Assembly (NCBI GenBank): GCA_963810935.1
Contig: CAWEPK010000009.1
Location: forward strand, 288,001 to 352,000
DNA length: 64,000 nt
Source: an uncultured delta proteobacterium
Lineage (GTDB): Bacteria; Desulfobacterota; Syntrophorhabdia; Syntrophorhabdales; WCHB1-27
Direction of reading: 5' to 3'
This document shows positions 9,064 to 61,542 of this stretch, in pieces (the first letter of the stretch is position 1; each line of letters begins with the position of its first letter). The notes beneath the pieces are model-generated. The model was given only the letters and a program-made list of their open reading frames with translations, made no database searches and had not been told where the DNA came from. The position numbers and the translations under genes are program-made.

Positions 9064-9190
9064 GCAGCCAGGTCATTTCCGCGCCTTTCGCGTCGTTTTC
9101 TCGGCGCGGCGTGCTCACGTACCTAACTACGTACGCTGCCGCGCGCCTTCGAAAAGCAACGCGAAATGCATCGAAAATCTCTCCGGCCGC
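9064..9190 (-). repeat. ~127-bp palindromic dispersed repeat, copy A
   Basis: Long imperfect hairpin; shares a 22-nt block with 10424 and 17- and 18-nt blocks with 61416. Confidence 0.9.
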
Positions 9191-9216
9191 AAAAAAGAGC
9201 ACCATGGGCCTTACAA

Positions 9217-9921
9217 TTAAAGTGCCTTTACTGGAAATGGATGTTTTTGTGAGCAATACTGCCGATTGAAGGCAACGACCTTTTCAATCGTTTCCTGGCT
9301 CTTTCCGATAGCCACGAACATAACGTCCCGCCAACAAATTGCTGCCAAATGCACTTTCGTTAACCTCTTTCTTATCCGGGTTTCTATCCGAGTAAAGCAC
9401 GTGTCGGGCGCGATACGCTGAAAGTACTGAAAACCGGAAATAACCGACTCCGGTGATACTCGTTCCAGAATGTTATTGATATCCGAATACGAGACATGTC
9501 CCTCGTGGCTATCCCTTTCCGGCTCGAAACCGATATCTGGGTCAATAAAAAACACGTGATTTTCTTTGCTTGGAAGGCCGGAAAAATATGTTTCCCTGTC
9601 TTTGTTCGTAAAATACGTCCCCGGCTTATGTATCTTCACTTTATACGAGGCGGCCGTCACCATCGGCAATGCTTGAAGCAAGAAAAGATCCAGAATGGGA
9701 CAGGCACGTTTGATGCATCGCTCCCGCTGTAAATCACGGCAGAAATCAATGACGGGGCCCCTTGCGGGAAAGAGTGCGGGCCGTGTGTTGCCATTTCCGG
9801 TACCGTCGTCTGGGGTTAACATCGGTATGATGTACAGGGGGTATTGCAAGGCTGACGCAAGAAAGTCATGATAGTCCCATTTGAAACTGTCCTTCGAGTC
9901 CCCGAAATATTGCTTTTTCAT
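9217..9921 (-). CDS. Hypothetical protein (lower GC)
   Basis: ~234-aa ORF beginning MKKQYFGDSKD, contains FFIDPDIG; function unknown. Confidence 0.7.
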   Translation of the reverse strand: MKKQYFGDSKDSFKWDYHDFLASALQYPLYIIPMLTPDDGTGNGNTRPALFPARGPVIDFCRDLQRERCIKRACPILDLFLLQALPMVTAASYKVKIHKPGTYFTNKDRETYFSGLPSKENHVFFIDPDIGFEPERDSHEGHVSYSDINNILERVSPESVISGFQYFQRIAPDTCFTRIETRIRKRLTKVHLAAICWRDVMFVAIGKSQETIEKVVAFNRQYCSQKHPFPVKAL

Positions 9922-10141
9922 TTCTCTCACCCGTATAGTGGCAAAGCAGGCTGTTGTTCAGTCGATCAAACCGCCGCCCGTTGTCATCTTCTGGATAGAA
10001 TAGCATACGAGTTTTGTTCTTCGTGCAAAATATTTGTGAGGAGAATCAAAAAGGGAAGAACACAATAAGTGAAAAAGCGATGACGTTGCCCGCGCGACAG
10101 GTATATAATCTTACCAGTAAGAATTGAGGCAGAGGTGGGAA

Positions 10142-10405
10142 ATGGCAAACGTCGCAACGACAAGGATGTCCTCGAAGGGTCAAGTAGTGATCCCGGAGGA
10201 AATCAGGAAGCGCCTCAAATTAAAGAAAGGCACCCAGTTTGTAGTGGTATGTGATAAGGACGTGGTGATATTGAAAGCGATCTCTCCGCTATCCATTGAC
10301 GAGTTCACTGCTTTGATTGCCGAGTCGCACAGGAAGGCGAAGGAGGCAGGTATAAGGCGAAAGGACATTGAGGCTGCCGTCGTCAAGGTCCGGGGTCGTA
10401 AGTAA
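10142..10405 (+). CDS. AbrB/MazE/SpoVT-family DNA-binding protein (antitoxin-like)
   Basis: MSSKGQVVIPEEIRKRLKL signature; GAGGTGG RBS. Confidence 0.9.
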   Translation: MANVATTRMSSKGQVVIPEEIRKRLKLKKGTQFVVVCDKDVVILKAISPLSIDEFTALIAESHRKAKEAGIRRKDIEAAVVKVRGRK

Positions 10406-10423
10406 GAAATAGCGGCCTGGAGA

Positions 10424-10548
10424 GCGGCCGGAGAGATTTTCGATGATAGGCACCGTGACCGAGGAGCCGCCGCCCGGAGCGTACTCTTTGTGTACGCGAG
10501 GACTCGCGGCTTCGAGGGACAGGTGATAGCGCGAAAAGATCCCGGCCC
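10424..10548 (+). repeat. Palindromic dispersed repeat, copy B
   Basis: Starts GCGGCCGGAGAGATTTTCGATG (identical to copy A); core GGAGCGTAC-loop-GTACGCGAGGACTCGCG. Confidence 0.85.
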
Positions 10549-10636
10549 ATATCAACCAACCCCAACTTCGGGTAGACATGCCGGCCCTTCTTTGTTATGA
10601 TAGGGGCGCCGATGTCTGACCAATAAGGAGGGCCAT

Positions 10637-11803
10637 GTGAAAAAGGCAGGCCTTTTATTCTTGATGTTCGCAGCTATAGGGATACTGGTTGCCGGCTGCG
10701 GCGAAAAGAGCCCGACCACGGTAAGGGTGGGTGTTATAGCCGAGCTGACGGGCGACATGCCCGCCGTTGGCGAATCCTGCAAGAAGGCAGCCCAGCTCGC
10801 AGTAAAACAGATCAATGACGCGGGCGGGCTGAAGATAGGCGACAAGCAATACCAGGTCGAGCTTTTTGTCGAGGACAACGCAGGCAAGGCCGACCAGTCT
10901 GCCTCCGCAGCCCAGAAGCTCATCACGCAGAAAAAGGTTGTAGCCATAGTCGGCCCGAACGCGACGCGCTACGCCATACCCGCCTCGGAGATAGCGGAAA
11001 GCTCGAAAGTCGTCCTCATCACCCCGTGGTCCACGAACCCGAAAACCACCCTCGACGCAAAGACGGGCGCGCCCAAGAAGTACGTATTCCGGGCCTGCTT
11101 CATCGACCCCTTCCAGGGGAGGGTGCTCGCGCGCTTTGCGATGGACAACCTGAAGGCGCGCAAGGCGGCCGTCCTCTACGATGTTGCTTCCGACTACAAC
11201 AAGGGCATCGCGGAGGTTTTCAAAGAGACGTTCGAGAAGAACGGGGGCAAGGTAGTCGCCTTCGAGACCTATACGACGAACGACAGGGATTTCTCGGCAC
11301 AGCTCACCAAGATAAAGAAAGCGGACCCGGATGTCGTCTTCCTGCCCAATTACTACAGCGAAGTGCCCCTGCAAATCCAGCAGGCCAAGAGGCTTGGCTT
11401 CAAAGTGCCTTTCTTCGGCAGCGATTCATGGGGCAGCCAGGAGCTGACGAAGCTCTGCGGCAAAGACTGCGAGGGTTATTATTTCAGCACGCATTACGCG
11501 CCGGATACGGCCGCCCCTGCGGCGCTGAAATTTATCGAGGCGTATAAGGCGGCTTACGGCGGCATGCCGGATGACGTAGCCGCCCTTACCTACGACTCCT
11601 TCGGCCTTCTGAAGCAGGCAATACTGGACGCGGGCAAGATCGACCGGCAGGCCGTACGCGATAGCCTGGCCAAAGTCCAGAAATACGAAGGGGTGACGGG
11701 CGACATGCAATTTAAGGAAGGCTCGTCCGATCCGGTGAAAAGCGCCGTGATACTTAAGATAGTGGACGGGAAGTTTGTCTATTTTGCGAACGCTGGACCT
11801 TAG
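10637..11803 (+). CDS. livK: Branched-chain amino acid ABC transporter substrate-binding lipoprotein
   Basis: Lipobox LVAGC; YVFRACFIDPFQG, DFSAQLTKIK. Confidence 0.9.
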   Translation: MKKAGLLFLMFAAIGILVAGCGEKSPTTVRVGVIAELTGDMPAVGESCKKAAQLAVKQINDAGGLKIGDKQYQVELFVEDNAGKADQSASAAQKLITQKKVVAIVGPNATRYAIPASEIAESSKVVLITPWSTNPKTTLDAKTGAPKKYVFRACFIDPFQGRVLARFAMDNLKARKAAVLYDVASDYNKGIAEVFKETFEKNGGKVVAFETYTTNDRDFSAQLTKIKKADPDVVFLPNYYSEVPLQIQQAKRLGFKVPFFGSDSWGSQELTKLCGKDCEGYYFSTHYAPDTAAPAALKFIEAYKAAYGGMPDDVAALTYDSFGLLKQAILDAGKIDRQAVRDSLAKVQKYEGVTGDMQFKEGSSDPVKSAVILKIVDGKFVYFANAGP

Positions 11804-11887
11804 TAAACCGGCCGGGTGGACACGCCCGGCCGCGCAAAAGTTTGCGGCAGGGAGCCGACCGCTTCTCGCAGCGCAGGTTATTTTCGC

Positions 11888-12763
11888 ATGAGCTACCTCC
11901 TGCAACAGATACTGAACGCCCTCCAGCTCGGGAGCATCTATGCACTTATTGCCCTGGGCTACACGATGGTCTATGGCATCCTCACAATGATCAACTTCGC
12001 CCACGGCGATCTGTTCATGGTGGGCGCTTTCATCTGCTTCCTCTCGGTGCTCCTTTTCAATCTGCCTTTCATCGCCGTCCTTGTCGTCTCCATGCTCGGG
12101 ACAGCGGTCCTCGGAGTCACGATAGAACGGCTCGCATACAAGCCGCTGCGCCAGGCCCCGAGGGTTTCGGCGATCATCACTGCGCTCGGCGTCGGCCTCT
12201 TCCTGGAAAATTTCACCCTTGCCCTCAGCCCGTATCCCAAGCACATCCCGGCGTTCATCCCCAACATCGCCTGGACTTTCGGGGACGTGTCGATCTCGCT
12301 TTTGCAGGTCGTCGTTATCGCCATTTCCCTCGTGCTCATGATCATCCTCGATTTGATCGTAAGGCGGACGATGGTCGGCATGGCGATGAGGGCCATCTCG
12401 TGGGACAAGACAGTCGCCCCTCTGATGGGCGTACCCGTCGATTCGGTCATTTCGATAACCTTCGCCATAGGGACAAGCCTGGGGGGCGTTGCGGGAGTCC
12501 TGTACGCCCTATGCTACCCGGTAATCGACCCTTACATGGGCATAATGGTGGGCTGGAAGGCGTTCATCTCTGCAGTCGTCGGCGGCATCGGCAATATCCG
12601 CGGCGCTATGATAGGCGGCTACATCCTGGGTGCGGTGGAGATCCTCGTAGTGGCTTTTCTGCCCTCTACCTACAGGGACCTCGTGGCGTTCGGGCTGCTT
12701 CTCGGGCTCCTGATCCTGCGGCCCCACGGCATCCTCGGCAAGGCAACGGTGCAGAAGGTATAG
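11888..12763 (+). CDS. livH: BCAA ABC permease LivH
   Basis: GSIYALIALGYTMVYG, INFAHG, GGIGNIRGA. Confidence 0.92.
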   Translation: MSYLLQQILNALQLGSIYALIALGYTMVYGILTMINFAHGDLFMVGAFICFLSVLLFNLPFIAVLVVSMLGTAVLGVTIERLAYKPLRQAPRVSAIITALGVGLFLENFTLALSPYPKHIPAFIPNIAWTFGDVSISLLQVVVIAISLVLMIILDLIVRRTMVGMAMRAISWDKTVAPLMGVPVDSVISITFAIGTSLGGVAGVLYALCYPVIDPYMGIMVGWKAFISAVVGGIGNIRGAMIGGYILGAVEILVVAFLPSTYRDLVAFGLLLGLLILRPHGILGKATVQKV

Positions 12764-12764
12764 C

Positions 12765-13802
12765 ATGGCGCGCCCGTTCAAAGACAGCCGGCTTATGTCC
12801 TTTCTCCACTCCCTTTTGGCTAAGCGATGGCTGAGGCAGGCGCTGCTTGCGGCCGGTTTCGCGCTCTCGTTTATCATTCCGGCTACGGACCTCCTCGACC
12901 AATACGTCCAGCTCGTCCTGATGTACATCGGCATCAACATCATCTTAAGCGTGAGCCTGAACCTCGTGAACGGGTACATGGGCGAATTTTCCGTGGGCCA
13001 CGCAGGCTTCATGGCGATAGGGGCCTATATCGCCTCGGTCGTATCCGTGCGCGTCTTCCCCGCCGCTGCGGCAGCCTGGCTCTTTCCGGCAGCGGTGATT
13101 GCAGGGGGGCTTGCCGCGGGCCTGGCAGGGCTTCTGGTCGCCTTCCCTTCTTTCAAGACCAGGGGCGACTACCTTGCCATCGTCACCCTTGCCTTCGGCA
13201 TGATCGTCAAGTCCGCCATCGAGAACATAAGCGCCCTCGGCGGCCCGCGCGGCTTCCTCGGCATGGACAGGCTTACGACTCTGCCCTGGGTCTTTTTCTG
13301 GACGGTCCTTTCCCTCTGGTTCATCCGCAATCTCGTTTATTCGCGCTTCGGGAGAGGCATCCTCTCGATCAGGGAGGACGAGATCGCCGCCGAGCTATCG
13401 GGCATAGACACGCGCCGCGTGAAGATGCTCGCCTTTGTGGTCTCGTCGTTCTTTGCCGGCATAGCGGGGGCCCTCTTCGCCCATCTCCTCCAGTTCATCA
13501 ACCCAAGGGTCTTCGATATCGTCAAATCGACCGATATCCTGATCATGGTCTACCTGGGCGGCATAGGCTCCCTCGGCGGCTCAATCGTCGGCGCAGTCAT
13601 CTACACGGTGCTCCTCGAGTTCCTGCGCCCCTTAGGCGTCTGGCGGATGGTCTTGATGCCCCTCGTGCTCGTGCTGCTCATGCTTTACAAGCCGAAGGGC
13701 ATCATGGGCCTGCGTGAGTTCTCCTGGCTCGTGCCGGGGGCCGGGCTTATCGCTTCCCGGTCCGGCCGTAAGAAAAAGGGGGCGGTCGATGTCGCTCCTT
13801 GA
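12765..13802 (+). CDS. livM: BCAA ABC permease LivM
   Basis: SLNLVNGYMGEFSVGHAGF, RGDYLAIVTLAF, IREDEIAA. Confidence 0.92.
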   Translation: MARPFKDSRLMSFLHSLLAKRWLRQALLAAGFALSFIIPATDLLDQYVQLVLMYIGINIILSVSLNLVNGYMGEFSVGHAGFMAIGAYIASVVSVRVFPAAAAAWLFPAAVIAGGLAAGLAGLLVAFPSFKTRGDYLAIVTLAFGMIVKSAIENISALGGPRGFLGMDRLTTLPWVFFWTVLSLWFIRNLVYSRFGRGILSIREDEIAAELSGIDTRRVKMLAFVVSSFFAGIAGALFAHLLQFINPRVFDIVKSTDILIMVYLGGIGSLGGSIVGAVIYTVLLEFLRPLGVWRMVLMPLVLVLLMLYKPKGIMGLREFSWLVPGAGLIASRSGRKKKGAVDVAP

Positions 13803-14556
13803 GATAAAGGACCTCACCCAGCGCTTCGGCGGCCTTACCGCGCTGTCGGATTTCAGCCTGAACCTGGAGAGGGATGAGCTGGCCGGGATCATCGGGCCGA
13901 ACGGCGCGGGCAAAACAACGGTCTTCAACCTTATCACGGGCGTTTACCGCCCGACGCGGGGAAGCATCGCGATCGACGGAAAAAGGATCGACGGGCAGAG
14001 GCCGAACCGGATCACATCCATGGGCATTGCAAGGACCTTTCAGAATATCAGGCTTTTCAAGGAACTTTCCGTTCTGGACAACGTGAGGTGCGCCCAATAC
14101 GGGCACGCAGCCTGCGGGGTCCTCTCGTCCCTTTTCAGGCTCCAACGCTTCAGGAAGGAAGAGGCGGCAATAATCGACGCCTCTATGGAGCTTTTGGGCC
14201 TCTTCCAGCTCGACGAGTACGCGCAGGAGGCGGCCAGGAACCTGCCCTACGGCCTTCAGCGGCGGCTGGAGATAGCGAGGGCGCTGGCCACGCGCCCGAG
14301 ACTGCTGCTCCTCGACGAGCCCGCGGCCGGGATGAACCCGACGGAGATAACGCGGCTCATGGAGCTGATAGGCTGGGTCAGAAAGGCATTCGACGTCACG
14401 ATCCTGCTCATCGAGCACCAGATGCAGCTCGTCATGAATATCTGCGAACGCCTTACGGTGCTCGACTTCGGCGCCACCATCGCGGAAGGCTCACCCACCG
14501 AGGTGCGCGCTGACAAGCGCGTGCTGACTGCCTATCTGGGGGAGGAAGAGGCGTGA
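13789..14556 (+). CDS. livG: BCAA ABC ATPase LivG
   Basis: GPNGAGKT, RTFQNIRLF, LLLDEPAAGMN. Confidence 0.93.
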   Translation: MSLLEIKDLTQRFGGLTALSDFSLNLERDELAGIIGPNGAGKTTVFNLITGVYRPTRGSIAIDGKRIDGQRPNRITSMGIARTFQNIRLFKELSVLDNVRCAQYGHAACGVLSSLFRLQRFRKEEAAIIDASMELLGLFQLDEYAQEAARNLPYGLQRRLEIARALATRPRLLLLDEPAAGMNPTEITRLMELIGWVRKAFDVTILLIEHQMQLVMNICERLTVLDFGATIAEGSPTEVRADKRVLTAYLGEEEA

Positions 14557-15266
14557 GCGATAAGGTCCTGCTCGCAGTCAGAGACCTGGAGGTGACGTAC
14601 GGAAGCATCAAGGCGGTAAAGGGCGTCTCGTTCGATGTAAGGGAAGGCGAGATCGTCGCGCTGGTCGGCTCGAACGGCGCGGGCAAATCATCGACCCTGC
14701 GCGCAATCTCCGGCATGGTGCCTTACAAGGGCAGCGTCCTGTACGATGGCAAGGAGCTGCGCGGCGCAGCCTGCCACCGCATCGCTTCCATGGGCATCGC
14801 CCACGTGCCGGAAGGGCGTGGCATCTTCGGAAACCTCACGGTGCAGGAGAACCTTAAGCTCGCCACGTGGCACCGGAAGGAAAGGCGTGAGATAGAGAAG
14901 GACTATAAGCGCGTGTTCGACCTCTTCCCCGTGCTTCAAAAGCGAAAGAAGCAGTCCGGCCAGACGCTGTCGGGCGGCGAGCAACAGATGCTGGCGCTTG
15001 GCAGGGCGCTCATGGGGCGCGGGCGCCTGATGCTCCTCGACGAGCCTTCGATGGGCCTTGCCCCCGTTCTCGTCAGGGACATATTTTCCGTGCTTAAGGA
15101 GATCAACCGGGCGGGCGGGACGATCCTGCTCGTCGAGCAAAATGCGCACATGTCGCTCAAGGCCGCGTCCTTCGGCCACGTGCTGGAGACCGGCAGCGTC
15201 ACCCTTTCGGGCCCGGGGGAGGCGCTGCTTGCAGACCCGCAGATCCGCGCGGCCTACCTGGGATAG
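14553..15266 (+). CDS. livF: BCAA ABC ATPase LivF
   Basis: GSNGAGKS, VPEGRGIF, LSGGEQQML, LDEPSMGLAP. Confidence 0.93.
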   Translation: MSDKVLLAVRDLEVTYGSIKAVKGVSFDVREGEIVALVGSNGAGKSSTLRAISGMVPYKGSVLYDGKELRGAACHRIASMGIAHVPEGRGIFGNLTVQENLKLATWHRKERREIEKDYKRVFDLFPVLQKRKKQSGQTLSGGEQQMLALGRALMGRGRLMLLDEPSMGLAPVLVRDIFSVLKEINRAGGTILLVEQNAHMSLKAASFGHVLETGSVTLSGPGEALLADPQIRAAYLG

Positions 15267-15308
15267 GGGTCCGTACACTATGCAAAATTACCGAAAAGCG
15301 GAAGGTTC

Positions 15309-16478
15309 ATGAGAATACGCTCCCTGGCTATTGTCTCGATTGCCCACGGGTCTGCCGACATTCCGCAGGGGGCCATACCCGTCCTGCTCCCGTTCTTCAT
15401 CGCTGCGCACCACCTTAGCTACACGGCTGCCGCAACCATCGTCTTCGCGGTGAGCCTCGTAGCGTCCGGCTTTCAGCCCGTCTTTGGCTGGATGAGCGAC
15501 CGGCGGCCGATGCCCTGGTTGATACCTGTTTCAATGCTGCTTTTGGGCGTCGGCGTAGCAAGCACCGGAATCCTTCCGACATACGGGCTGGGGGTCGCGG
15601 CGGTGATGTTGAGCGGTCTCGGCAGCGCCATGTTCCATCCGGAAAGCGCCAAGGTAATGCTGCACCTTGCGCAGGGCAGGAAGGCAACGGCGATGAGCTT
15701 GTTCGGTATGGGCGGTCAGGCCGGTTTTGCGGTGGGTCCCATCCTTGCCACCGTCCTGCTTCTCGCGTGGGGCCTTAAGGGCACGGTATGGCTTATAGTG
15801 CCGCCCGTTCTCGTCGCAGCCATTCTGGCCTTTAAGCTGCCTGACTATACGAAGGGCTATTCAGCGCACAAAAAACTGCCGGCCGGCACATTCGGCGCTC
15901 AAGTGCCCGACCAATGGCCGCCGTTTGTCTGTCTCTCCAGCGGCCTGCTCATACGGTCGATAATCTTTTACGGGCTGAATACCTTTCTCCCGCTCTTTTG
16001 GATCAATGTCCTGCATGCCTCGAAGGTGACTGCGGGCTCCAGCCTGGCGGCTTTTCTCACTGCATGTATAGTGGGTAATTTCGCAGGCGGCTGGATGGCA
16101 GACCGCCTCGGCTACAAGATGATGGCTGTCGGCGGCTGTCTTCTCCTCGCGGTCCTTCTTCCGTTCCTGCCCATGGCGTCGACCCCGCTCACTGCTACGT
16201 TGCTTCTCGTGCTTATCGGCCTCGTCCTCTCGGTCCCCTTAAGCGCCATGGTTGTGCTCGGCCAGTCCTACCTGCCTAACAGGCTGGGACTCGCCTCCGG
16301 GATTACCCTGGGCCTGGGCTTTTCATTCGGAGGGCTGACCACGCCTGCCATCGGACGGGTAGCCGATGTTTACGGCCTCCGCGCAGCACTCATGGTGCTC
16401 GCTTTCCTGCCGGTCGCGATGACTCTGCTTATGCTGGCGCTGCCTTCAGAGAAAAGAAAAGAAGCGATGGCGCTGTAA
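15309..16478 (+). CDS. MFS transporter, Fsr-like (second paralog)
   Basis: QPVFGWMSD, FHPES motifs; multi-TM. Confidence 0.85.
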   Translation: MRIRSLAIVSIAHGSADIPQGAIPVLLPFFIAAHHLSYTAAATIVFAVSLVASGFQPVFGWMSDRRPMPWLIPVSMLLLGVGVASTGILPTYGLGVAAVMLSGLGSAMFHPESAKVMLHLAQGRKATAMSLFGMGGQAGFAVGPILATVLLLAWGLKGTVWLIVPPVLVAAILAFKLPDYTKGYSAHKKLPAGTFGAQVPDQWPPFVCLSSGLLIRSIIFYGLNTFLPLFWINVLHASKVTAGSSLAAFLTACIVGNFAGGWMADRLGYKMMAVGGCLLLAVLLPFLPMASTPLTATLLLVLIGLVLSVPLSAMVVLGQSYLPNRLGLASGITLGLGFSFGGLTTPAIGRVADVYGLRAALMVLAFLPVAMTLLMLALPSEKRKEAMAL

Positions 16479-16490
16479 ACCCTGAGCCTG

Positions 16491-16997
16491 TCAGTAGACC
16501 GCAAGCACCTGGGCATGGAACCTGCGCGCTATACGCATTGCGATGCGCTGCAACGCCGCCCTTCTGTTCGGGTCCTCCAGGTTGATGCTGCTTGCGTCGT
16601 ATACCTCGCCGTCGCCGAACGACCACGTCTTCAAAAGCTTGCCCTGCTTCCCCCGCAAAGTAAGGACGACAATCGCTGTGACGGATTTCTGGACGGTCTG
16701 GGCGGTCGCGCCGATAGCGCCAGGCGCTGTGGCCACAGTGTTGATGGTCCCCTGAAGGGTAGCATCCGCGTCAGGCTTGTTTATCTGAAACAGGCCGCTT
16801 CCGGCCAGCTCCTGGGAAAACGCCTGCGTGAAGAGGCCGGACACCATCGGCTCGAAGCTGTTGTTCTTAAAAACGGGGACGTATATGGAGGTGATATCCC
16901 CTCCATAAATGCCTTTTTCCTTGACAAGCTCGTAGCCGCAGCCACTCACCAGGACCGCGCAGATGAGAAGCGCGCAAATCGGAAGGAGTCTCTTCAT
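16491..16997 (-). CDS. lptE: LPS assembly lipoprotein LptE-like
   Basis: Lipobox VSGCGY; directly downstream of leuS (conserved context). Confidence 0.75.
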   Translation of the reverse strand: MKRLLPICALLICAVLVSGCGYELVKEKGIYGGDITSIYVPVFKNNSFEPMVSGLFTQAFSQELAGSGLFQINKPDADATLQGTINTVATAPGAIGATAQTVQKSVTAIVVLTLRGKQGKLLKTWSFGDGEVYDASSINLEDPNRRAALQRIAMRIARRFHAQVLAVY

Positions 16998-17007
16998 ATG
17001 CCCCTCA

Positions 17008-19497
<2,490 letters not shown>

Positions 19498-19505
19498 TTC
19501 TTGCC

Positions 19506-20708: not shown

Positions 20709-20777
20709 TAATCTCCTCCAGAAAAAAGCAATTGCCGAAACGGCCCGCAACGCGGTCGCTCCGGCCTATTTCGCTCG

Positions 20778-25580: not shown

Positions 25581-25581
25581 T

Positions 25582-48281: not shown

Positions 48282-48310
48282 AAAAAAGGCGCCCGGAACG
48301 GGCGCCTTTT
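48282..48310. terminator. Bidirectional-type intrinsic terminator after iscU
   Basis: AAAAAAGGCGCCCG-GAA-CGGGCGCCTTTT. Confidence 0.8.
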
Positions 48311-48331
48311 GTTTGATCTGCCGCAGCGGAT

Positions 48332-49917: not shown

Positions 49918-50235
49918 TGTTCAAATATAATACCATATCATGCGGCAATGCACGGTAAATTTGTTCCGCGCCGCAACTCACGCGTACCCTCTATCTTTTG
50001 TATACAAGATCGTAGCGTGCAAAAACAGCCTGTTTCTCTCCGCTTTGAGGCGCACGCGCGTCCCGACTTTCCGTTTTTGCCTGTTTTCCTTGACCTTTTC
50101 GGTCAAAATCGCTTAGAATATATCAGCTATACATGCCTGAGAAAACCGGGGGCTAAGCGAACCGGTGACACCGTGTTATCCTTCCGGGGCGTTCTTCGGC
50201 AACCGAGATAGCAATTGATATAGAAGGAGGAGTCA

Positions 50236-51384: not shown

Positions 51385-52961
51385 AGATACTGATCGCAGA
51401 CGCGATGTCCGATAAGGCGGTCGATATACTCAAGTCCAACAAGCTGGACGTCGACGTGAAGACCGACCTGAAGAAGGAAGAGCTCCAGGCCATTATCGGA
51501 GAATACGACGCCCTCATAGTGCGGAGTGCGACCAAGGTCACGAAGGATATCATAGAAAAAGCCGACAAGCTGAAGGTGATCGGCAGGGCGGGCATCGGCG
51601 TGGACAACGTCGATGTCGAGGCGGCGACGGAGAAGGGGATCGTTGTCATGAACACCCCTCAGGGCAACGCCCTGGCTGCGGCGGAGCATGCCGTGGCCCT
51701 CATGTTCGCCCTCGCCAGAAAGGTGGCGCTCGCCGACCGCACGATGAAGGAAGGCAAGTGGGAGAAAAAGCTGCTTATGGGCGTCGAGGTCTACGACAAG
51801 ACGCTGGGCGTCATCGGCATAGGGAACATAGGGATGATCGTCGCCGAGAAGGGAGTCGCCCTCGGCATGAAGGTGCTGGCTTATGACCTTTATGTGACGA
51901 AGGAAGTGGCTGTTCAGAAGGGCATAGAGCTGGTCGACCTGGACACGCTCCTTTCGAAGAGCGATTTTATTTCCGTCCACGTGCCCATGATTAAGGAGAC
52001 GAAGAACCTTATTAACAAGGACAACCTGGGCAAGACCAAGAAGAGCGTCTTCATCGTCAACACGGCACGCGGCGGCATCGTGAACGAGAAAGACCTGTTC
52101 CAGGCCCTCGAGGATGGTCAGGTCGCGGGCGCTGCACTGGACGTCTTCGAGCAGGAGCCGCCGCCGAAGGACCATCCTCTCGTCCTGTCCGAGAAGGTAG
52201 TCGCAACGCCCCACCTCGGCGCATCGACGAAGGAGGCCCAGAGCAAGGTTGCCATCGACATAGCAAACCAGATCGTCGACTACGCCCTGAACGGCGTGAT
52301 AAAGAACAGCGTGAACGCGCCGGGCGTCTCCAGGGAGGTGCTCGCGCAGATCTCGCCGTACCTAGCCCTGTCCGAGAAGCTAGCGCGGTTCGTCTCGCTT
52401 ATCACCGAGCCGCCCATCAAACAGGTGGTGATAGAGTACGCGGGCGCCATTGCCGAGGTGGAGACGAAAATACTGACCCAGGGCATCGTCAAGAACATCC
52501 TGTCTCCCCACGTGTCGGACGCCAACTACGTGAACGCCCGCCTGATGGCCCAGGCGCGCGGCATCAAGATCAAGGAGATCAAGGAGAAGGAGCACGAGGA
52601 CTTCACCACCCTGCTCGGCATAAGGCTTACGGGCAAGAACGGCGACACAACGGCGTACGGGACGCTCTTCGGCAAGAAAGAGCCGAGGCTCATCAAGGTG
52701 AACAAGATCGCCGTCGATTCCGAGCTGTCCGGGAACGTGCTCTATATCCTGGCTAACGACAAACCGGGCACGGTCGGCGGACTCGGCACGACGCTCGCCA
52801 AGAAAGGCATCAATATCGCAAGGATACATTTGGGCAGGGAACAGGAAGGCGGCCTGGTGCTCTGCATGATCGACGTCGACGGAGAGATCGATGACGGGCT
52901 GCTCAAAGAGATATCGAAAGTGCCGAACGTCATCGAAGTGAAAAGGATCGACCTCTCATAG
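51381..52961 (+). CDS. serA: D-3-phosphoglycerate dehydrogenase
   Basis: [33 protein letters not shown]-terminal ACT domain. Confidence 0.95.
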
Positions 52962-54629
52962 GACGGACAGCCGATCTCGTTATCAAGGACGCCGTCCTCG
53001 TTGACCCTGTAAACGAGAAGGGCGTAAAGACCGATCTTTCCATCGACGATGGGAAGATCGCGTCTTTTTATGGAGGCGACGCGCGGGAGGTAATCGACGC
53101 GAAAGGCGCTTACGTCTCGTGCGGCTTCATCGAAAGCCACTTGCACGTCGAGGGCCTGCACCTCCTGCCCGACCGCTACTTCAAGGCATTCCTCGCCCAC
53201 GGCACAACAACGATCGTAACCGACCTCCACGAGACGGCCAACGCAGGCGGCATGGAAGGGCTTCACTGGTACCTCTCGATGGTGGAGCACCTTCCCCTCG
53301 ACATTTTCGTCATGGCCCCATCATGCGTGCCCTCCTGCCCCTGGGAATCGGGAGCAGGCGTCATAGGCCCGCGGGAGCTTAAGCGGCTTAAAGGGGCCAA
53401 GGGTGTCATAGGGCTCGGAGAGGTGATGGACGTTCCTGCCGTTTTGGGGCGGAGCAAGGCGATCATGAAAAAGATCGCGCTTTTCGCAGGATCGCCTGTG
53501 GACGGCCACGCCCCGGGCGTCTCCGGGGACGACCTCGACCGCTACCTGTCGGCAGGCATCTACTCCGACCACGAGACGACCCAGGCCGCTGAAGGCGAAG
53601 AGAAGCTGAAAGCAGGCATGCACCTGTTCCTCAGGGAAGGCTCTGTCAGCAGGGACCTTGCCAACCTGGCGGGCCTTATCAGGCCGGAGAATCTGTCGAG
53701 CCTCTCGCTGTGCACGGACGACCTGTCCGCCCGCGACCTGTTCGAGTCAGGCCACCTCGACCGCCTGGTGAGCCTGCTGGTTACACTCAAAATCCCCCTC
53801 TTCCGGGCGCTCCGCCTCGTCACTGCGAGCCCCGCCGCCTACTTCGGCCTCGTCGACCGGGCGCGCCTCGCCATAGGAAGGCGGGCGGACCTCGTGATCT
53901 TCGAAAGGCCGGAGCAGATGCGCGTGCTTGCAACGATCAAGGACGGGCGCGTTGTCTACCGGGAGGGAGATGACGTGAGCGCGGCAGGCGGCATGACTGC
54001 GCCCGCCCACCCCTCATCGAAGCTCAATCTGGCGCCTTTTCCAGGAAACGGGTTGCGCAGAAAGGCAGCGGCCCGGAAGATGCGCGCCATAGGTGTAAGG
54101 GAAGGCTCCATCGTGACGGACGACCTCGTAGTCGATACCCCTTGCGAGGACGGTTATCTTGTCTGCGACCATGAAAGGGACCTCGTCTTCGCGTATGTTT
54201 TCGACCGCTACAGGGCGCAAAGCGAGTACGGCTTCTGCCTCGTCCACGGGTTCGGCCTCAAGGGCGGCGCCATCGGCACAACGTATGCCCACGACAGCCA
54301 CAACCTTGTCATCGTGGGCGACAATCCCGGAGGACATCAGGAAGGTGTTCGGCCTTTTGAAGGCGTCCGGGGGAGGCATGGCTGCGTCCGGCAAAGGGTC
54401 GGCCGTCGTCTTCCCGATGCCCTATTTCGGCATCATATCCGACCTCGACGCCCCCTCATTACTTGCGCGCGAGCGTGAGCTTGACCGGCTCGCCAGGCAA
54501 ATGGGCATCGGGATGAAAAACCCCTTCTTCCAGATGTCATTCCTCTCGCTGCCCGTGATCCCCAACCTCCGCCTGACTACGAAGGGGCTCTTTCACATCG
54601 GGACTGCCAGCTACGCCACGGACGTCTGA
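52958..54629 (+). CDS. ade: Adenine deaminase; no canonical start codon; frameshift at ~54329
   Basis: GFIESHLHVE, GTTT, APSCVP, DGHAPG, REGS, CTDD, AHDSHN, SFLSLPVIP. Confidence 0.85.
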
Positions 54630-55303
54630 TGCTCCGGGCAGCGATCTTCGATTTCGACGGCACCCTGACCGAGCTGACCCTCGATTTCGGCCAAATGAGA
54701 CGGGAAGTCGAGGCCATAGCGGAGGGGTATGCCTCAGCAAGCGCGATCCGCGGCCTCGACGGTCTCTATACTCTTGAGATGATCGACGAGCTTAGCCGGC
54801 TGCTCGACCGCCAAGGGCCGCCTTTCAGGGCGGAGGCCCTTGGCGTGCTCTGCGAGATGGAAGTGAAGGCAGCCGTTGGCAAGGAGGTCTACTCGTACAC
54901 CAGGGACGTACTCACGGCCCTGCGGGCCGAAGGCCTTAAGGTAGGCGTGATTACCAGGAACTGCACCGGCGCGATTGAGACGGTCTTCCCGGACTTAAGG
55001 GCCTACGTCGATGCCGTCGCGACCAGGGACGACGTCCGGGAGGTAAAGCCCGACCCGGAACACGTAAGGGCAATGCTTCGCTCACTGGGCGTGGACGCAC
55101 CTGGCGCCCTGCTCGTAGGCGACCACCCGACCGACATGATGGCGGGCATCGCGGCGGGAGCGCACACGCTCGGCCTGCTTGCGGGCAGGACGTCCAGAGC
55201 GGACCTCGAACAGGCAGGCGCCGAATACGTGGCCGACGACATAAGGGCAGTCCCCGGCATAGTCCGGCGGCTTCGCCTTTCGCCCTCCCCTGAAATAAGA
55301 TAG
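54629..55303 (+). CDS. HAD-family phosphatase
   Basis: FDFDGTL, ITRN, KPDP, VGDHPTD. Confidence 0.9.
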   Translation: MLRAAIFDFDGTLTELTLDFGQMRREVEAIAEGYASASAIRGLDGLYTLEMIDELSRLLDRQGPPFRAEALGVLCEMEVKAAVGKEVYSYTRDVLTALRAEGLKVGVITRNCTGAIETVFPDLRAYVDAVATRDDVREVKPDPEHVRAMLRSLGVDAPGALLVGDHPTDMMAGIAAGAHTLGLLAGRTSRADLEQAGAEYVADDIRAVPGIVRRLRLSPSPEIR

Positions 55304-55397
55304 CCGGGCCGTCAGCAGCCGGGAATTTCTTTCCCTGATGCGGAATTATTTTCCGCCTCAGCACCTACATTTTGCCCGTTTTTCCTATTGAATCTCA

Positions 55398-55413
55398 TGG
55401 CCTGGGGTTTGCA
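55398..55413 (+). promoter_or_regulatory. Putative sigma-54 promoter
   Basis: TGGCCTGGGGTTTGCA (GG-N10-GC). Confidence 0.55.
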
Positions 55414-55471
55414 TTAGACAGCTCAAGGCCATCCATCACCAAAGGAGCGGACGGCCCGAAAGGAGGTCCAC

Positions 55472-55915
55472 ATGGTAAGCGGCATTACAAGCGCGACCAA
55501 CAATTGGAGCTCAACGTCCCAGTTGAAACAAGCTCTGTTCAACAAGCTCGACTCGAACAAGGACGGTGTGATCGACAAAACAGAGATCACGGCTGCCATG
55601 AGCGCCGGCAAGAAACGCTTGCACGGCTCCTCGAAGAACAGCCCCACCCTCGACCAGGCGTTCTCGAAGGTAGACACGAACGGAGACGGGGTAATCAGCC
55701 CCACCGAGCTCTCGGCCGCCCTGTCGAGCGGCGCGGCATCGGGCCTTTTCGGCGGCTCGACCGCCTCCTTCGTAAACATGATCTCACCGGCAACCGGCAG
55801 CGCGAGCACCAACAGCACGGCGGCGGCGCAGAACAGGTCGACGAACAGCCTGCTGAAGAATTATCTGACCCAGGTCGGCCAAATGGTGAAACAGGGTTTC
55901 ACAGCAACCATTTAG
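55472..55915 (+). CDS. EF-hand calcium-binding protein
   Basis: EF loops DSNKDGVIDKTE and DTNGDGVISPTE; AGGAGG RBS. Confidence 0.85.
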   Translation: MVSGITSATNNWSSTSQLKQALFNKLDSNKDGVIDKTEITAAMSAGKKRLHGSSKNSPTLDQAFSKVDTNGDGVISPTELSAALSSGAASGLFGGSTASFVNMISPATGSASTNSTAAAQNRSTNSLLKNYLTQVGQMVKQGFTATI

Positions 55916-55927
55916 GCGCGTTCTGTT

Positions 55928-56575
55928 TTAGAACCCCAGCGTCTCTCCCACCAGCAGGACGGTCATGTCCGTCCGCAGCGGTTTCTTGGCTAGAATAATG
56001 TAAATATTGCATATCCTCTGCGGCGAGGCGCAGTCCGCGCATTCACCCGTCTCGGCGCACGGCGTCTTATACGAGAGCCTGCGGGCGTTCATGGGTGACG
56101 TCCAATCCCGCGTCCGCGCCTCCGCCTCGGCAACGTCCTTGACGATCTTGTTCACCCCGCACACGAGGATCACCTTTTTCGGGCCGAAAGTCATTGCGCA
56201 CACCCGGTTTCCCGTGGCGTCTACGTTGAACAGCTCCCCCTCCTCGGTAACCGCATTGCTGCTTGCGAGGAAGACGTCCGCAGTCAGTATCTCTTTGCGC
56301 ATCTTCAGCCCGTCCTCGGGCGAAAGCCCGGGCGTTCCGGGGTTAAGGAGCGTCACCTTATGCTTTTTAACTTCGTCGAAAAAGCCGATCTGGGCAAGCG
56401 TCACGGAACCCCCGACGCCGACAGTCGCCCCTTCAGGCACCCTCGAAAAAATCTGCTTCAACGCGTCGGCCGTATCCGGGGCATACACGGCGTCGAAATT
56501 ATTCTTCTTCAAAGCTTCAATAGTCCTCTTTACCTGCAAGTCGCGATACCATTTCTCATATTCAGTCGTCGCCAT
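55928..56575 (-). CDS. LUD-domain (lactate utilization YkgG-like) protein
   Basis: GGSVTL, SSNAVT, NVDATGNRV, GVNKIV, C-terminal Cys cluster. Confidence 0.85.
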   Translation of the reverse strand: MATTEYEKWYRDLQVKRTIEALKKNNFDAVYAPDTADALKQIFSRVPEGATVGVGGSVTLAQIGFFDEVKKHKVTLLNPGTPGLSPEDGLKMRKEILTADVFLASSNAVTEEGELFNVDATGNRVCAMTFGPKKVILVCGVNKIVKDVAEAEARTRDWTSPMNARRLSYKTPCAETGECADCASPQRICNIYIILAKKPLRTDMTVLLVGETLGF

Positions 56576-56662
56576 GTCTCCTCCTTTTGCGGTGGGATAC
56601 AATAGTTTAAAATGGCGGGAGTCAAAATACAATGAAAGTGCAAATGCGGACGAGAGAGTATG

Positions 56663-56995
56663 CTATTCCCAGGCCTTCCACACGTCGGGTTGATAGCCTA
56701 CCGTCGCATCCCGGCCGTTCCGCACGACGGGCGTTTTGAGAAGCAGGGCGTCCTTGAGGATCTCGTCTTCGATGTCGTGGGTCAGGTACTTCAGGTTCTT
56801 ACGGCCGTACGCCTTACCCTCGCGGTCGATAAGTTTATCAATGCCCACTGCAGCCTTGAGGACGTTCAATTCTCCCCTGCTCAGACCCTTCTGCGCGATA
56901 TCCACAAACTGGAAGGGGATCCTTCTTTCTTTGAAGTATCTTTGTGCTTTCTTCGTCTCCCGGCATTTGAGGGTGCCGAAAATTTGTATGTTCAA
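56663..56995 (-). CDS. ArsC/Spx-family thioredoxin-fold protein
   Basis: IFGTLKCRETKKAQRYFKER, LLKTPVVRNG. Confidence 0.85.
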   Translation of the reverse strand: MNIQIFGTLKCRETKKAQRYFKERRIPFQFVDIAQKGLSRGELNVLKAAVGIDKLIDREGKAYGRKNLKYLTHDIEDEILKDALLLKTPVVRNGRDATVGYQPDVWKAWE

Positions 56996-57077
56996 GGAAC
57001 CCCACTCACCCCATGATCACAGGGTTACTATCTCGTATCAACGGAGATTAGTGCGCATCGAGCCGGGGTGAAACCCA

Positions 57078-57833
57078 TCACCCTCGCCCTATGTAAGGCA
57101 TCCTGGTCGCCATAATGGTCATGAACTGCACATTCGCATCGAGCGGCAGACTTGCCATGTAGACAACGGCTTTCGCGGCATGCTCGACGTCCATGGTAGG
57201 CTCCGGCGCGACGGCCCCATAAGGCTGGAGCATACCGGCATCGAACGGCGTCAGGTCGGTCGCCACGTTGCCGATATCGATCTGGCCGCACGCAATATCA
57301 TACTTTCGGCCGTCAAGGGCCGTCGACTTGGTAAGGCCCGTCATAGCGTGCTTGGTGGCGGTATAGGCCACGGAGTGGGGGCGCGGGACGTGCGCGGAGA
57401 CGGAACCGTTATTTATGATGCGCCCGCCACGGGGCGTCTGGTTCTTCATGAGCTTAAAGGCCTCCTGCGTGCACAGAAAGGCCCCGGTCAGGTTGGTGTC
57501 AACGGCGGCTTGCCATTGCTCGTACGTGAGGTCCTCCAGCGGGACGGGCGGCACGAAGATCCCGGCGTTGTTGAATAATAAGTCGAGGCGGCCGAAAGTC
57601 TCCCGGGTCTTTGCGAAGAGGGCGCGCACCCCGTCTCGATCGCGCACATCGGTCGGCGCCACCAACGCCCGCGAGGCAAGCGGCCCGGCTTCCGTTACAG
57701 TCTTCTCCAACGATTCCACCCTTCGTCCGGCCAGGACAACGCAGTAGCCTTCCCGCAACAAAGCAAGCGCCGCACACTTGCCGATCCCGCTTCCCGCTCC
57801 CGTCACGATCGCTACCTTTCCGGATTCGCTCAT
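57078..57833 (-). CDS. Short-chain dehydrogenase/reductase
   Basis: [17 protein letters not shown]. Confidence 0.92.
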
Positions 57834-58212
57834 AGGGTCTCTCCCCCACAGTATTATTGACCGTACGTCATTGGGCGAACATCATCATTCGCTCCCATTT
57901 TATGGTCATGAACAAGGGCAGGTCAAGAAATAGTTGCGTGTTGAATGGCTTGAGGCGCGCCTCCGGCCGCAACCGCCGCTAACGAATAAAGAGCATTATT
58001 GGGCGGTGGTAAGAGCGGGTGGTACTATATTTGCGGGGTGGGATACTAAATGCACAGGTCGGGATTCGACCTGTCGGACTGTGCCGGCTCGCGTAGTGAT
58101 TTCTTCATGAAGTATTGACTTTGAATTACTTTCGATTCATGCAATAGTATAAGTGACAATCGATAGGCGGACCGGCCGCGCTGCATAGTTGTTGTTACCC
58201 ATAGGTACGCTG

Positions 58213-58817
58213 ATGAAGATGAAGATCGCTATACTTGGCTGGGGGTCGTTGATATGGGATAAACAACCCGAATTCGACAACCAGCACGCGGATGATTGGC
58301 AATATGATGGCCCGTGCTTGAAGCTCGAGTTTTCGAGGGTTTCAGAGCGGCGCAACAACGCCTTGACTCTGGTGCTCGATCCTGACAATGGGAAATGCTG
58401 CCGAGTCGCTTACACGTTAAGCCGACGCGAAAACCCCGACGACACCATCTGCGAAATCTGCGGTGCCGTGAAGGCACGATACTCAAGAATGTTGGTTTCT
58501 GGTTTGCCGACAAGAGCAAGGAAAACAGCCGTGATCCAAAGTCGCTGGAGGCGATACAACGATGGGCCTCGGAGAAAAAACTCGACGTCGTTATCTGGAC
58601 AGACTTGGAGAGCAATTTCAAAGAGAAGGGCAAGTTCCCCAAGAAGAGCGAGGATAACGGCCTGTTCTCTTGTTGAAAATGCTCTTGCTCATCTTCAAGC
58701 TCTCGACCCCGAGGGAAAGACGAAAGCCGCAGAGTACGTACGGCGTGCCCCTGATTTGTCAAAACCCCGCTTCGTGAGGCATTGCAGTTATGGCCATGGT
58801 TTCACGAAAATGGTTAA
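58213..58817 (+). pseudogene. Hypothetical protein with gamma-glutamylcyclotransferase-like N-terminus; apparently several frameshifts
   Basis: IAILGWGSLIW; protein-like reading switches frame at ~58454, ~58670 and probably ~58757. Confidence 0.5.
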
Positions 58818-58873
58818 CCAAACCTTGTATCGAATGAACACCTTGGAAACTCTCTAAGAGGAATGGCACTACG

Positions 58874-60622
58874 ATGAAATCGTTTCCCATACGAGTCAAC
58901 CTGATCATTATTCTACTGGTTTTATTTATTCCCCATCTCGTATCCGCTCAATCAAAAACCTTCATCAAAGAATATACCTACCAGGCCAGCGAGGCCGATA
59001 GCAAACTATCATGCAGGACAATCGCCCTTGAACAAGTAAAAAGATTACTCCTTGAGGAACTTGGAGTTTACCTTATAAGTAAGACTGAAGTGAGAAATTA
59101 TCAGCTCGCCACGGATACAGTCACTTCTATAACAGCGGGTATAGTCAGCACTCAAATCATAGATGAAAACTGGAACGGTGAGAAGTATTACCTCAAGGCA
59201 AAAATAACGGCAGACACGGATGAAGTATCCAAAGCGGTCAAAAACATCGGCAGCGACAGCGAGGATAGGAAGGCGTTACAAGAAACCCGAGAGAGGGCGG
59301 ATAAAGCATTACTGGAAATCGAAAGGCTCAAGAAAGAATTGGCCACTCTCAAGCAAGACAAGGACAAGCTAAAGGCGTACGTGAAGGCAGTAGACGAGTT
59401 AAAATCAACCGACCTATTCCTGAAAGGCTACGCGTTATTGGAGTCCAAGAAGTGGGCCGAAGCAGTTGATGCTTTCGACAAGGTTCTGGGCATGGACCCC
59501 CTCTATGTGCACGCTTACAACTATAGGGGCGTGGCTTACCGTGCACAGAAACAATATGATAGGGCTCTTAAAGACTTCGACCGTACCCTTGAATTAGACC
59601 CCAGTTATGCTAAGGCCATATTCAATAAGGGTTCGCTTTACATGGCTCAAAAGAATTACGATAAGGCCATAGAGAGCTTCAGCCGTGTGATAGAGATAGG
59701 TTATGGTAACCACTCCGACTTGGATCGGAAGGCTGCCGTGTTGTACGTTGCTTATGTCCACTACGGTAGGGGGTGTGCTTATCTTGCTCAAAAAAAATAT
59801 GCAGTGGCTATAGAAGACTTCAGCCAAGCTTTGGAGATCGCCGCGCCGTTCCTTCCGAAGCTGCATGCGCTTCCCTCGGAGAGATCGCCGCTACAACACT
59901 TCACCGGGGATTTTCGCTTGGCCCCGACAAGGCCTAACGATGACGAGATATTGTTTTACTGGGCTGAGGTCTATATGTTCAGGGGTGGCGCCTATCGTAT
60001 GCTCAAGCAATGCGACAAGGCCATCGACGACATCGGCCGCGCACTGGAAATAGACCCAAAATTTGCCCTTGCCTACCAGGAGAGAGGACAAGTCTATCTT
60101 AACTTAGGTAAGGTCGCCCCGGCCTGCGCGGACCTGAAAACGGCCTGCGATTTGGGTGTCTGTAAAGGCAACGACTTGGCAAGAGATAAGAAATATTGCG
60201 ACAATGGGGTTCCGAGTCAGCACATGCTTGTCAGACAGGATTTCCTAAAATATCTGAGAGCAATAGCTATACCAGAACAGAAAGAGGCCATTGATGCCTA
60301 TGCGAGTATCTCTGGAAAGAACTACAGAGGCGATGATGCTTTTGCTGATGTCCTCGCCAGTTCCGTACTGCCCAAATACGGGATTGTTATCCGGGCAATG
60401 GGCAACATTGCGCCAGAAACTACCGAAGTCCGACAGCTTCACTCATTGCTTCTTGAAGGGGCAAACAATCAAATGGAAGGCTTTACAACGATGCTATCCG
60501 GTGCGCAATTGCATAGCAAGGAGACAGTAGACTTGGGCAATGAGAAACTGATCCGAGGGAAACAAAAGATTCAGCTGTTTAACGACGAAGTGAAAGCGAT
60601 GAAGGAACAGTATTTAAATTAA
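58874..60622 (+). CDS. Exported TPR-repeat protein
   Basis: Signal peptide; coiled coil; several TPRs (AYNYRGVAY...ALKDFDRTLELDP). Confidence 0.85.
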   Translation: MKSFPIRVNLIIILLVLFIPHLVSAQSKTFIKEYTYQASEADSKLSCRTIALEQVKRLLLEELGVYLISKTEVRNYQLATDTVTSITAGIVSTQIIDENWNGEKYYLKAKITADTDEVSKAVKNIGSDSEDRKALQETRERADKALLEIERLKKELATLKQDKDKLKAYVKAVDELKSTDLFLKGYALLESKKWAEAVDAFDKVLGMDPLYVHAYNYRGVAYRAQKQYDRALKDFDRTLELDPSYAKAIFNKGSLYMAQKNYDKAIESFSRVIEIGYGNHSDLDRKAAVLYVAYVHYGRGCAYLAQKKYAVAIEDFSQALEIAAPFLPKLHALPSERSPLQHFTGDFRLAPTRPNDDEILFYWAEVYMFRGGAYRMLKQCDKAIDDIGRALEIDPKFALAYQERGQVYLNLGKVAPACADLKTACDLGVCKGNDLARDKKYCDNGVPSQHMLVRQDFLKYLRAIAIPEQKEAIDAYASISGKNYRGDDAFADVLASSVLPKYGIVIRAMGNIAPETTEVRQLHSLLLEGANNQMEGFTTMLSGAQLHSKETVDLGNEKLIRGKQKIQLFNDEVKAMKEQYLN

Positions 60623-60870
60623 GTATTTCATTTGGCTCCGTCATCGGCAAGTGGACAAAGAGGGTAAAAGTGCACACAAGCAGGATCATCATCTTAAGCA
60701 TGTGAATGTTGTTTTATGTATGCCTTCCAGAAATAGGAATCAAGCCGATGTAGAGCTATTGACTGATCGAGCAATCGTAGAGGAATTGAAATTGTGAAAT
60801 AATAAAGTCGAAGGAGTTACTCTCAAGACAGGTTGTATTCCTACGCTTCTTAAGGAAAAAGGGGCCGATC

Positions 60871-61146
60871 ATGATAGCACAAGCAAAAATAGACGCTGTT
60901 AAAGAATACCTGCAAAGTGAGTTTCCGGGTTTTGCGGTGGACGATAAGGACGATTTTGAACGCCAGTCCTGGAAGTTCAGCGTGGCAGGCGGTTCTGCCA
61001 TCTATATTGTAAAATTTGAAAGGCCGTTCTGGGACGACACTGACGATGTAAAAAACATTTTGGAGCTCTTTGAACTCAGCAAGTTCATGAAAGATAACCG
61101 GGGTCAACAAGTCTTTGTGACAAGACATGGCTTGACGGTGTTCTAA
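60871..61146 (+). CDS. Hypothetical protein (91 aa, low GC)
   Basis: Purine-rich RBS; plausible globular sequence. Confidence 0.6.
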   Translation: MIAQAKIDAVKEYLQSEFPGFAVDDKDDFERQSWKFSVAGGSAIYIVKFERPFWDDTDDVKNILELFELSKFMKDNRGQQVFVTRHGLTVF

Positions 61147-61415
61147 CTATTGCCGGAGCGTGAGCAATGATCCTGGATATGGGATAAGAAAAACTGGCCT
61201 CTCTGTCGAGTCGTGTCCGTCGCTTAGTCATTCTTTCAATCGCAAATCGGTAATTATGAATACCGACCGTTGCTAACCCTTCGTTGTCAGTAACAGTAAA
61301 TCCTAAATATTCTTACATTCTCCGTAATATCGAGTTTCAGTTTTTACAATTATCACGGTGTTAGTGACCATTCCGAAGTGGATAGTGCATATAGGGCTTT
61401 GGTCTATACGGGCCT

Positions 61416-61542
61416 GCAGCCGGGAGATTTTCAGTGGAATTCGCGTTGCTTTTCGACGAAGCGAGCCGGAGCATACGGTTTGTGTATGTGAGGACTCGCG
61501 CCCGAGAAAACGACGCGAAGGCCGCGAAAATATCCCGGCCGC
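61416..61542 (+). repeat. Palindromic dispersed repeat, copy C
   Basis: Shares TTCGCGTTGCTTTTCGA and CCGAGAAAACGACGCGAA with copy A, and GAGGACTCGCG with copy B. Confidence 0.9.

Follow-up and report, generated by a model that had tools for sequence, protein, structure and literature searches.

What are the three long self-pairing repeats that stand at the borders of accessory DNA in this 64,000-nucleotide stretch of a single contig (CAWEPK010000009.1; hereafter the window, meaning the whole stretch analysed), taken from the 4.06-Mb genome of an uncultured delta proteobacterium (G000)? A first, sequence-only reading had taken the copies, here named rods A, B and C, for structure-selected non-autonomous mobile elements of the REPIN or MITE (a miniature transposable element with inverted repeats) type, for recombination sites analogous to attC, or for a non-coding RNA (ncRNA) motif. 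The rods form a real and abundant family, and the kind of element is already known, since their apex is shared with rods matched by the RPE1 profile and with a Geobacter repeat family. We consider it on balance probable that these about 85 repeats, whose 3' end lies against conserved host DNA and whose 5' end lies against strain-variable DNA, represent a non-autonomous mobile element resembling RPE-1, probably moved as folded single-stranded DNA by a putative enzyme recognising the apex. The argument draws on the observed copy number, compensatory pairing, presence or absence between strains, polarity, excess of diverging pairs, differing inner helices, occurrence of the apex across phyla, and IS110 insertion at the apex.

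All three homologous copies were recovered with the positions, strands, ends and apical stems first described. Each folds as a single rod on the expected strand, with DNA z-scores of -4.27 (A), -2.29 (B) and -5.89 (C); shuffled sequences folded as well as the real copy in 0/200, 6/200 and 0/200 cases, respectively. With a covariance model, A, B and C, at 105-127 bits, were exactly the copies recovered from the window; no unrelated match exceeded 21 bits. The proposed placement at junctions also held: A lies between der/engA and a low-GC gene for a 233-aa protein, B separates an abrB/mazE-type gene from a gene for a periplasmic binding protein, and C has a block of GC content 0.46-0.49 on one side and a cobalamin riboswitch with its cob operon on the other. 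The DNA located 5' of A, B and C is in all three cases missing from the corresponding site in the related genome G002.

An iterated profile built from A, B and C returned 89 matches in the genome at E up to 0.01, or 85 once split halves were merged, 63 of them near full length; the best E value in a reversed-genome control was 1.8. A few copies may be counted twice, because near-identical rod-bearing regions are present on two contigs (C12:278386 and C14:3253) and the assembly is listed at 7% contamination. The repeat measures ~127 bases; in longer variants, of ~155-170 bp, a further hairpin is present at the side or the tip. When 70 copies taken from G000, G001 and G002 were aligned, 13 of the 21 consensus pairs showed two-sided change and 95.7% of cells were paired, which bears out the covariation claimed earlier, although such counts overstate independence because the copies are related to each other. 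None of 500 shuffles scored as high, and six slid registers gave 54.5% at most. One strand folds better in 63/63 copies (62/63 with RNA parameters), G-U pairs favouring one strand. The conserved part of the rod is not its ends but its tip, a structurally conserved apex of ~29 bases. By a codon-skew proxy, only 22/69 copies have their better-folding strand on the leading-like side of replication (p 0.0035). Orientation relative to neighbouring genes is even (24/22/20/20). With regard to gene content, 82 of 86 non-edge matches overlap no called gene and four overlap one, no in-frame gene insertion being seen. Rfam gave no match on the rods, neither at the gathering threshold nor at any E up to 10. 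G000 also contains sister rod families, which differ in their arms and carry a variant form of the apex, at C3:42684, C5:218648, C7:107602, C7:127435, C8:479100, C12:193962, C17:90511 and C17:106077.

The rods are polar with respect to accessory DNA. For the comparison with G002, 764 kb of roughly 3.6 Mb were obtained and 603 kb aligned, giving 152 breakpoints. At strain breakpoints, the gap from rod to shared DNA has a median of 4 bp on the 3' side versus 169 bp on the 5' side (n=37 single rods), and it is at most 15 bp at the 3' end of 31/37 rods and at the 5' end of 5/37. A G000 rod is present at 15/65 breakpoints of at least 500 bp versus 31/752 gene junctions, confirming the suspected enrichment at island edges. 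The 1-kb flanks in G000 have a GC content of 0.538 on the 5' side and 0.594 on the 3' side (genome 0.583), the 5' flank being the lower in 64/82 cases, and our own gene caller places a stop codon within 15 bp of the 3' end in 26/43 cases and of the 5' end in 4/42. Among rod neighbours within 5 kb, 13/22 diverge, 3 converge and 6 are in tandem (p about 9e-5 for divergence); 6/9 close pairs also diverge in G355, a genome that may overlap relatives already searched and is not counted as independent. The genes on the 5' side, often of the toxin-antitoxin or defence kind, include RelB/ParE, PemK, an Xre-type antitoxin, Fic, AbiTii, Dsr1/SIR2, Abi_alpha, a KAP NTPase and PDC-S19. PADLOC matched 9 of 26 hand-picked 5'-side proteins, a selection without a control set, and many of the other 5' neighbours are ordinary core genes. 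An outward-facing rod pair also brackets, at distances of 42-56 bp, a 324-aa gene (L033:433-1404; C7:376173-377147 in G000) that has no Pfam or PADLOC family and is absent in G002; judged by eye, it may resemble a class III nucleotide cyclase.

Strain comparison further revealed turnover. For 37 G000 rods the 3' flank has an ortholog among the G002 sequences, where the rod is full at 19 sites, partial at 3 and absent at 15; the 5' flank differs at 28 of these 37 sites. In several of the 16 full orthologous pairs printed, a site-specific base is kept although the inner helices of both arms are not the same, as illustrated by C5:70232 and L053, which have 74% identity inside, the same rare base, and a 3' flank at 96% identity. 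Because orthologous copies keep such a base yet differ inside, these sequences point to an exchange of inner helices between copies, a symmetric exchange that would rest on the 16 pairs and on the pair counts of the 70-copy alignment. Some host DNA is lost at "empty" sites, and short homologies of 4-6 bp are present at three of them. A collapsed 33-bp rod at C12:159935 is a deletion product starting inside the rod. A YTAR motif lies near the rod ends in 9/63 and 5/63 copies. No target duplication of at least 5 bp was found at the diverging pairs (0/13), so that a classical MITE with target duplication is not supported.

At the locus itself, A and B form an outward-facing pair bracketing two low-GC genes between der and the binding-protein operon (Table 1). 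In G002, at 94-96% identity over this region, nothing but a 102-bp remnant is left, and G001 keeps A and the abrB gene. In contigs from two of four soil runs (X2 and X4; all four runs come from one study), position 9069 is joined to 10487. The remnant reads as a deletion that starts at the foot of A and reaches into the tip of B. For cargo gene 1, homologues were found in 2/300 other genomes of the phylum and at 44 metagenome loci, and several of them have integron-cassette-like flanks (strict pattern in 2/30, more by eye). G002 lacks the 3.4-kb block 5' of C at the corresponding site, and in G001 the block finds no long match. A second repeat family, at ~57950-58110, marks the far end of this block and occurs at 12 sites in G000; G001 and G002 also contain many such sites. 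This family belongs to a longer mosaic repeat with a short arm segment in common with the rods, and chimeras of the two are located at C7:150534 and C8:304903.

Table 1. Rods and neighbouring features in the window (positions count from the first nucleotide of the window).
Feature	Position	Strand	Remarks
Rod copy A	9064..9191	-	114.6 bits (covariance model); 3' end faces der/engA stop codon, 9 bp apart
Rod copy B	10423..10549	+	105.4 bits; mid-arm of the second type; divergent from A, with its 3' end toward binding-protein operon
Rod copy C	61414..61542	+	127.1 bits; 3' end 44 bp upstream of cobalamin riboswitch
Cargo gene 1, 233 aa	9217..9918	-	no Pfam/NCBIfam/PADLOC family; low GC; patchy distribution
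Cargo gene 2, AbrB/MazE-type antitoxin or regulator	10142..10405	+	PF04014, TIGR01439
der/engA GTPase, conserved host flank	7751..9055	+	kept in G001-G004
Periplasmic binding protein (Peripla_BP_6), conserved host flank	10637..11803	+	kept in G001-G004
Strain-specific low-GC block 5' of C (222-aa open reading frame, 582-aa TPR protein)	57962..61413		
Cobalamin riboswitch heading cob operon, conserved host flank of C	61586..61769	+	RF00174, 96.6 bits

Beyond G000, the model matched 20/21 other genomes of the taxonomic family, 10/34 in one neighbouring family, and 0/5 in two others; L213, titled uncultured delta proteobacterium, contains 138-bit copies. The apex alone is present in 14/301 genomes of the phylum, with no control match. 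A wider apex search returned at least 124 stretches, 80 of them listed. Here the hairpin at the tip is found again in rods that are otherwise dissimilar, from Alphaproteobacteria, Nitrospira, Bacillota and further groups, including Mesorhizobium, Brucella/Ochrobactrum, Paenibacillus, Listeria, Alistipes and Myxococcota. Plasmid and phage collections searched with copy C gave no match. The 77 IMG/VR stretches are mostly clusters of tail, portal and head genes; the apex-bearing rods (L107-L182) lie between genes within such clusters, the junctions differing by contig. We assume these clusters to be alphaproteobacterial gene-transfer-agent loci, and on that assumption the rods would reflect chromosomal insertion rather than phage origin. 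Apex-bearing rods form head-to-tail arrays with a period of 355-646 bp in G137 (L422-L425); among the copies listed, every one in the first part of the contig is on the minus strand and every one in the second part on the plus strand. In G236 (L414-L421), a 190-bp rod has the same apex, and its copies, 86-95% identical, suggest a recent burst.

Which enzyme could act on these rods? Of what the earlier reading proposed to look for, IS110 was found at the apex; IntI, a RAYT over cut-off, target duplications of at least 5 bp and clean empty sites were not. The best TIGR02249 score for IntI in the genome was 66.5 versus a cut-off of 265, and the best NF047646 score for RAYT was 63.6 versus 80, the latter belonging to a gene with a short inverted repeat of its own, at a distance of 14 kb from a rod. 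IS200-type Y1 genes are not adjacent to rods. One Y1 transposase of 315 aa (L447:499-1446; G000 C8), with a C-terminal helix-turn-helix and its own short inverted repeat, stands beside an RHS-like gene. On rod-holding contigs, the rod nearest to any tyrosine recombinase is at least 15 kb away, the XerC-type gene of the window having its nearest rod at 15 kb; a XerD-like gene at C10:167401 looks frameshifted near its end. No rod pair encloses a transposase, and no autonomous insertion sequence (IS) with the same terminal repeats was found beside the copies.

An IS110 element (PF01548, PF02371) sits at the apex motif in all four of its G000 copies, one in this rod family, two in a sister rod family and one outside a rod. 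In loci of this lineage (L446:179-1687 on G000 C17; L459-L480), the strand on which it is inserted at the apex varies from genome to genome. Across the taxonomic family, rod halves flank 7 of the 15 IS110 loci examined, and three copies in genus g3 lie at other, unrelated sites. G001 and G002 have many rods and no match to this IS110, which is therefore read as a passenger. The arrangement recalls the IS110 elements on repetitive extragenic palindromes (REPs), as far as the portion of the literature consulted describes them.

If the RPE-1-like reading is right, a putative enzyme would recognise the apical hairpin and move the rod as folded single-stranded DNA. The 3' junction would be made nearly precisely and the 5' end left ragged, so that extra DNA would arrive with the rod or enter later on its 5' side. 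Two outward-facing rods would bracket a small island, short-homology deletions would then erode it, and copies would exchange inner helices with each other. Several results weigh against this reading. No recurring mobile-element enzyme was found in the clustered 5'-side open reading frames of the G000, G001 and G002 copies, nor did 80 genome-contig and 76 viral loci show one close to the apex, and a Pfam scan of 120 5'-side proteins gave single Y1 and HNH matches with no recurrent enzyme. At six informative G002-versus-G000 sites the rod is accompanied by 35-106 extra bases on its 5' side and 1-39 on its 3' side, leaving no clean empty/filled pair, so some "empty" sites may be deletions; the cargo loss at A/B in G002, X2 and X4 likewise looks like deletion. 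A rod was present at 0/48 loci of cargo gene 1 homologues, hence the rods do not travel with this gene family. In distant taxa, the GC polarity is not significant (38/67, p 0.14) and close pairs show no preference for divergence (1 diverging, 1 converging and 2 tandem in G353); outside the family, gene ends do lie nearer the 3' side (median 71 versus 123 bp from the apex, figures without a significance test). The RPE-1 profile TIGR01045 reached at best 12.2 bits on the genome versus a cut-off of 30, with 0/24 in-frame peptides matching. Finally, the covariation counts are inflated by relatedness of the copies, and the gene calls come from a simple purpose-made caller.

A bolder explanation, which we hold to be possible though doubtful, sees a gene-capture system, an integron analogue without IntI: a putative enzyme of many phyla would recognise the folded tip, fix the 3' end at gene boundaries and pull foreign DNA, often defence or toxin-antitoxin genes, in on the 5' side; outward pairs would be movable mini-islands, and the same enzyme would move Rickettsia RPE-1. 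We hold it rather unlikely that the rods are the two ends of larger cargo-carrying transposable units, composites of the integron mobilization unit or TIME kind, the outward pair being mobile and single rods its decayed remains. Such units would fit the diverging pairs in G000 and G355, the outward-facing 3' ends with their sharper edge, the back-to-back pairs with 58-160 bp spacers (L404, L397) and the extra 5' bases of singlets; they sit badly with the lack of direct repeats of at least 5 bp at diverging pairs, with pairs whose two ends are often different variants (as in A and B), with the absence of an enclosed transposase, and with single copies being the majority. The rods could also be fragile sites, inserting regardless of foreign DNA, with the hairpin being cut or skipped in replication and one-sided repair deleting DNA and admitting foreign DNA 5', the link to islands being a consequence. 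Deletion products that begin inside rods (the collapsed 33-bp rod and the G002/X2/X4 join at A/B), the short homologies at three junctions, the scarcity of better-folding strands on the leading-like strand, as expected if single-strand exposure is selected against, and the accumulation of other repeat families in the same 5' flanks all agree with this idea. We judge it improbable nonetheless, as it leaves unexplained both the loss and gain on the 5' side in both orientations and an apex kept across phyla.

The remaining proposals of the sequence-only reading fared less well. If they were attC-like sites, used as folded single strands by a cassette system of the integron type, the rods would have fitting traits, namely fixed bulges, strand asymmetry, a replication-strand bias and cargo of the cassette kind. 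The IntI version of this proposal is nonetheless largely refuted by the low IntI score, the distance from tyrosine recombinases, the random orientation to neighbouring genes, the lack of arrays, and close pairs that diverge instead of running head to tail, and we regard the proposal as a whole as very unlikely. Equally improbable is a structured ncRNA or RNA-stability element: covariation with G-U pairs favouring one strand speaks for it, whereas absence at 15/37 orthologous sites in a 94%-identical strain, occurrence on either strand relative to transcription, and the lack of an Rfam match speak against it. What stands of the mobile-element proposal is a structure-selected, non-autonomous, mobile-element-like repeat, as seen in strain presence/absence and covariation, with the link to accessory edges now supported statistically; REPIN proper, for want of a RAYT over cut-off and of a GTAG/CGTC tag, and the classical MITE with target duplication do not.

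These results would matter in several respects. A tip of ~29 bases that is common to otherwise unrelated rods in several phyla, cultured non-pathogens included, offers bait for the enzyme. Because their polarity can be measured and points to recently gained genes for defence and toxin-antitoxin functions, the rods mark hot spots of gene gain and may even create them, and an IS110 lineage landing on the tip across a bacterial family provides a third handle on RPE-type movement. Should the gene-capture explanation be true, it would also supply RPE-1 of Rickettsia with the mover that it lacks so far.

How, then, do the rods compare with known systems? The refuting outcome named by the earlier reading, a match to a described family, came about in part: the apex is common to RPE1-profile rods and to the listed Geobacter family, while the full rod matches no described family among those tested, Rfam included. 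Among 301 alphaproteobacterial genomes, TIGR01045 gave matches at E up to 0.001 in four, none over the cut-off (best 29.6 versus 30), and the best matches lie on rods with this apex, exact at 3/9 loci and with the same geometry and paired substitutions at 6/9, a count that leaves out three loci of an unpublished genome. These profile matches suggest that Rickettsia RPE-1 itself may have this tip. Both RPE-1 and the rods are single long stem-loops closed by pairing of 5' and 3' ends, and the rods have the corresponding ~105-150 bp size and paired ends. In the parts consulted of PMC2229807, PMC3733652 and PMC3767692, RPE-1 is a 105-146-bp single stem-loop without a known mobilising enzyme, and no polarity or pairing around accessory DNA was found there. 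Unlike RPE-1, the rods have unrelated, GC-rich outer arms and are intergenic. Geobacter metallireducens harbours a six-copy, ~140-bp palindromic intergenic repeat, Gmet_R4001-R4006, for which the portion of PMC2700814 consulted (Fig. S8b) gives no mechanism or genomic polarity; read by eye on the reverse strand, its apex shares the 6-bp stem of the rods, with one extra base after the apex and, as far as that portion describes, IS-like outer ends.

The rod family and its polarity were not described in the literature searched, which mostly did not cover subscription journals and included parts of PMC10969869 and PMC2996986; nor were an apex common to several phyla, a 5' bias to acquired DNA, or an exchange of inner helices. 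Integron mobilization unit/NFM2-MITE composites, according to the sections consulted of PMC3184786, share with the rods small structured repeats flanking captured genes, but consist of identical 288- or 439-bp copies with transposase-type terminal inverted repeats and a 5-bp duplication, whereas the rods have ends that differ through paired changes, and a search for duplications found none. With attC sites, the rods share a folded single-strand rod beside cassette-type genes, and they differ in lacking IntI, arrays, and orientation to the upstream gene. CIR, as part of PMC2229807 describes it, is a two-armed structure, unlike this rod. Closer are REPINs and REPtrons, for which the portions consulted of PMC3116915 and PMC3733652 describe, as in the rods, a non-autonomous hairpin with compensatory changes on both arms, decayed copies and a role as IS110 target. 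Unlike REPINs, the rods lack a RAYT over cut-off and an invariant terminal 16-mer, and a GTAG/CGTC-type tag stands at the rod foot in 2/63 copies at the 5' end and 8/63 (reverse forms) at the 3' end. We file the rods as elements that work like RPE-1 and REPINs and are a member of neither.

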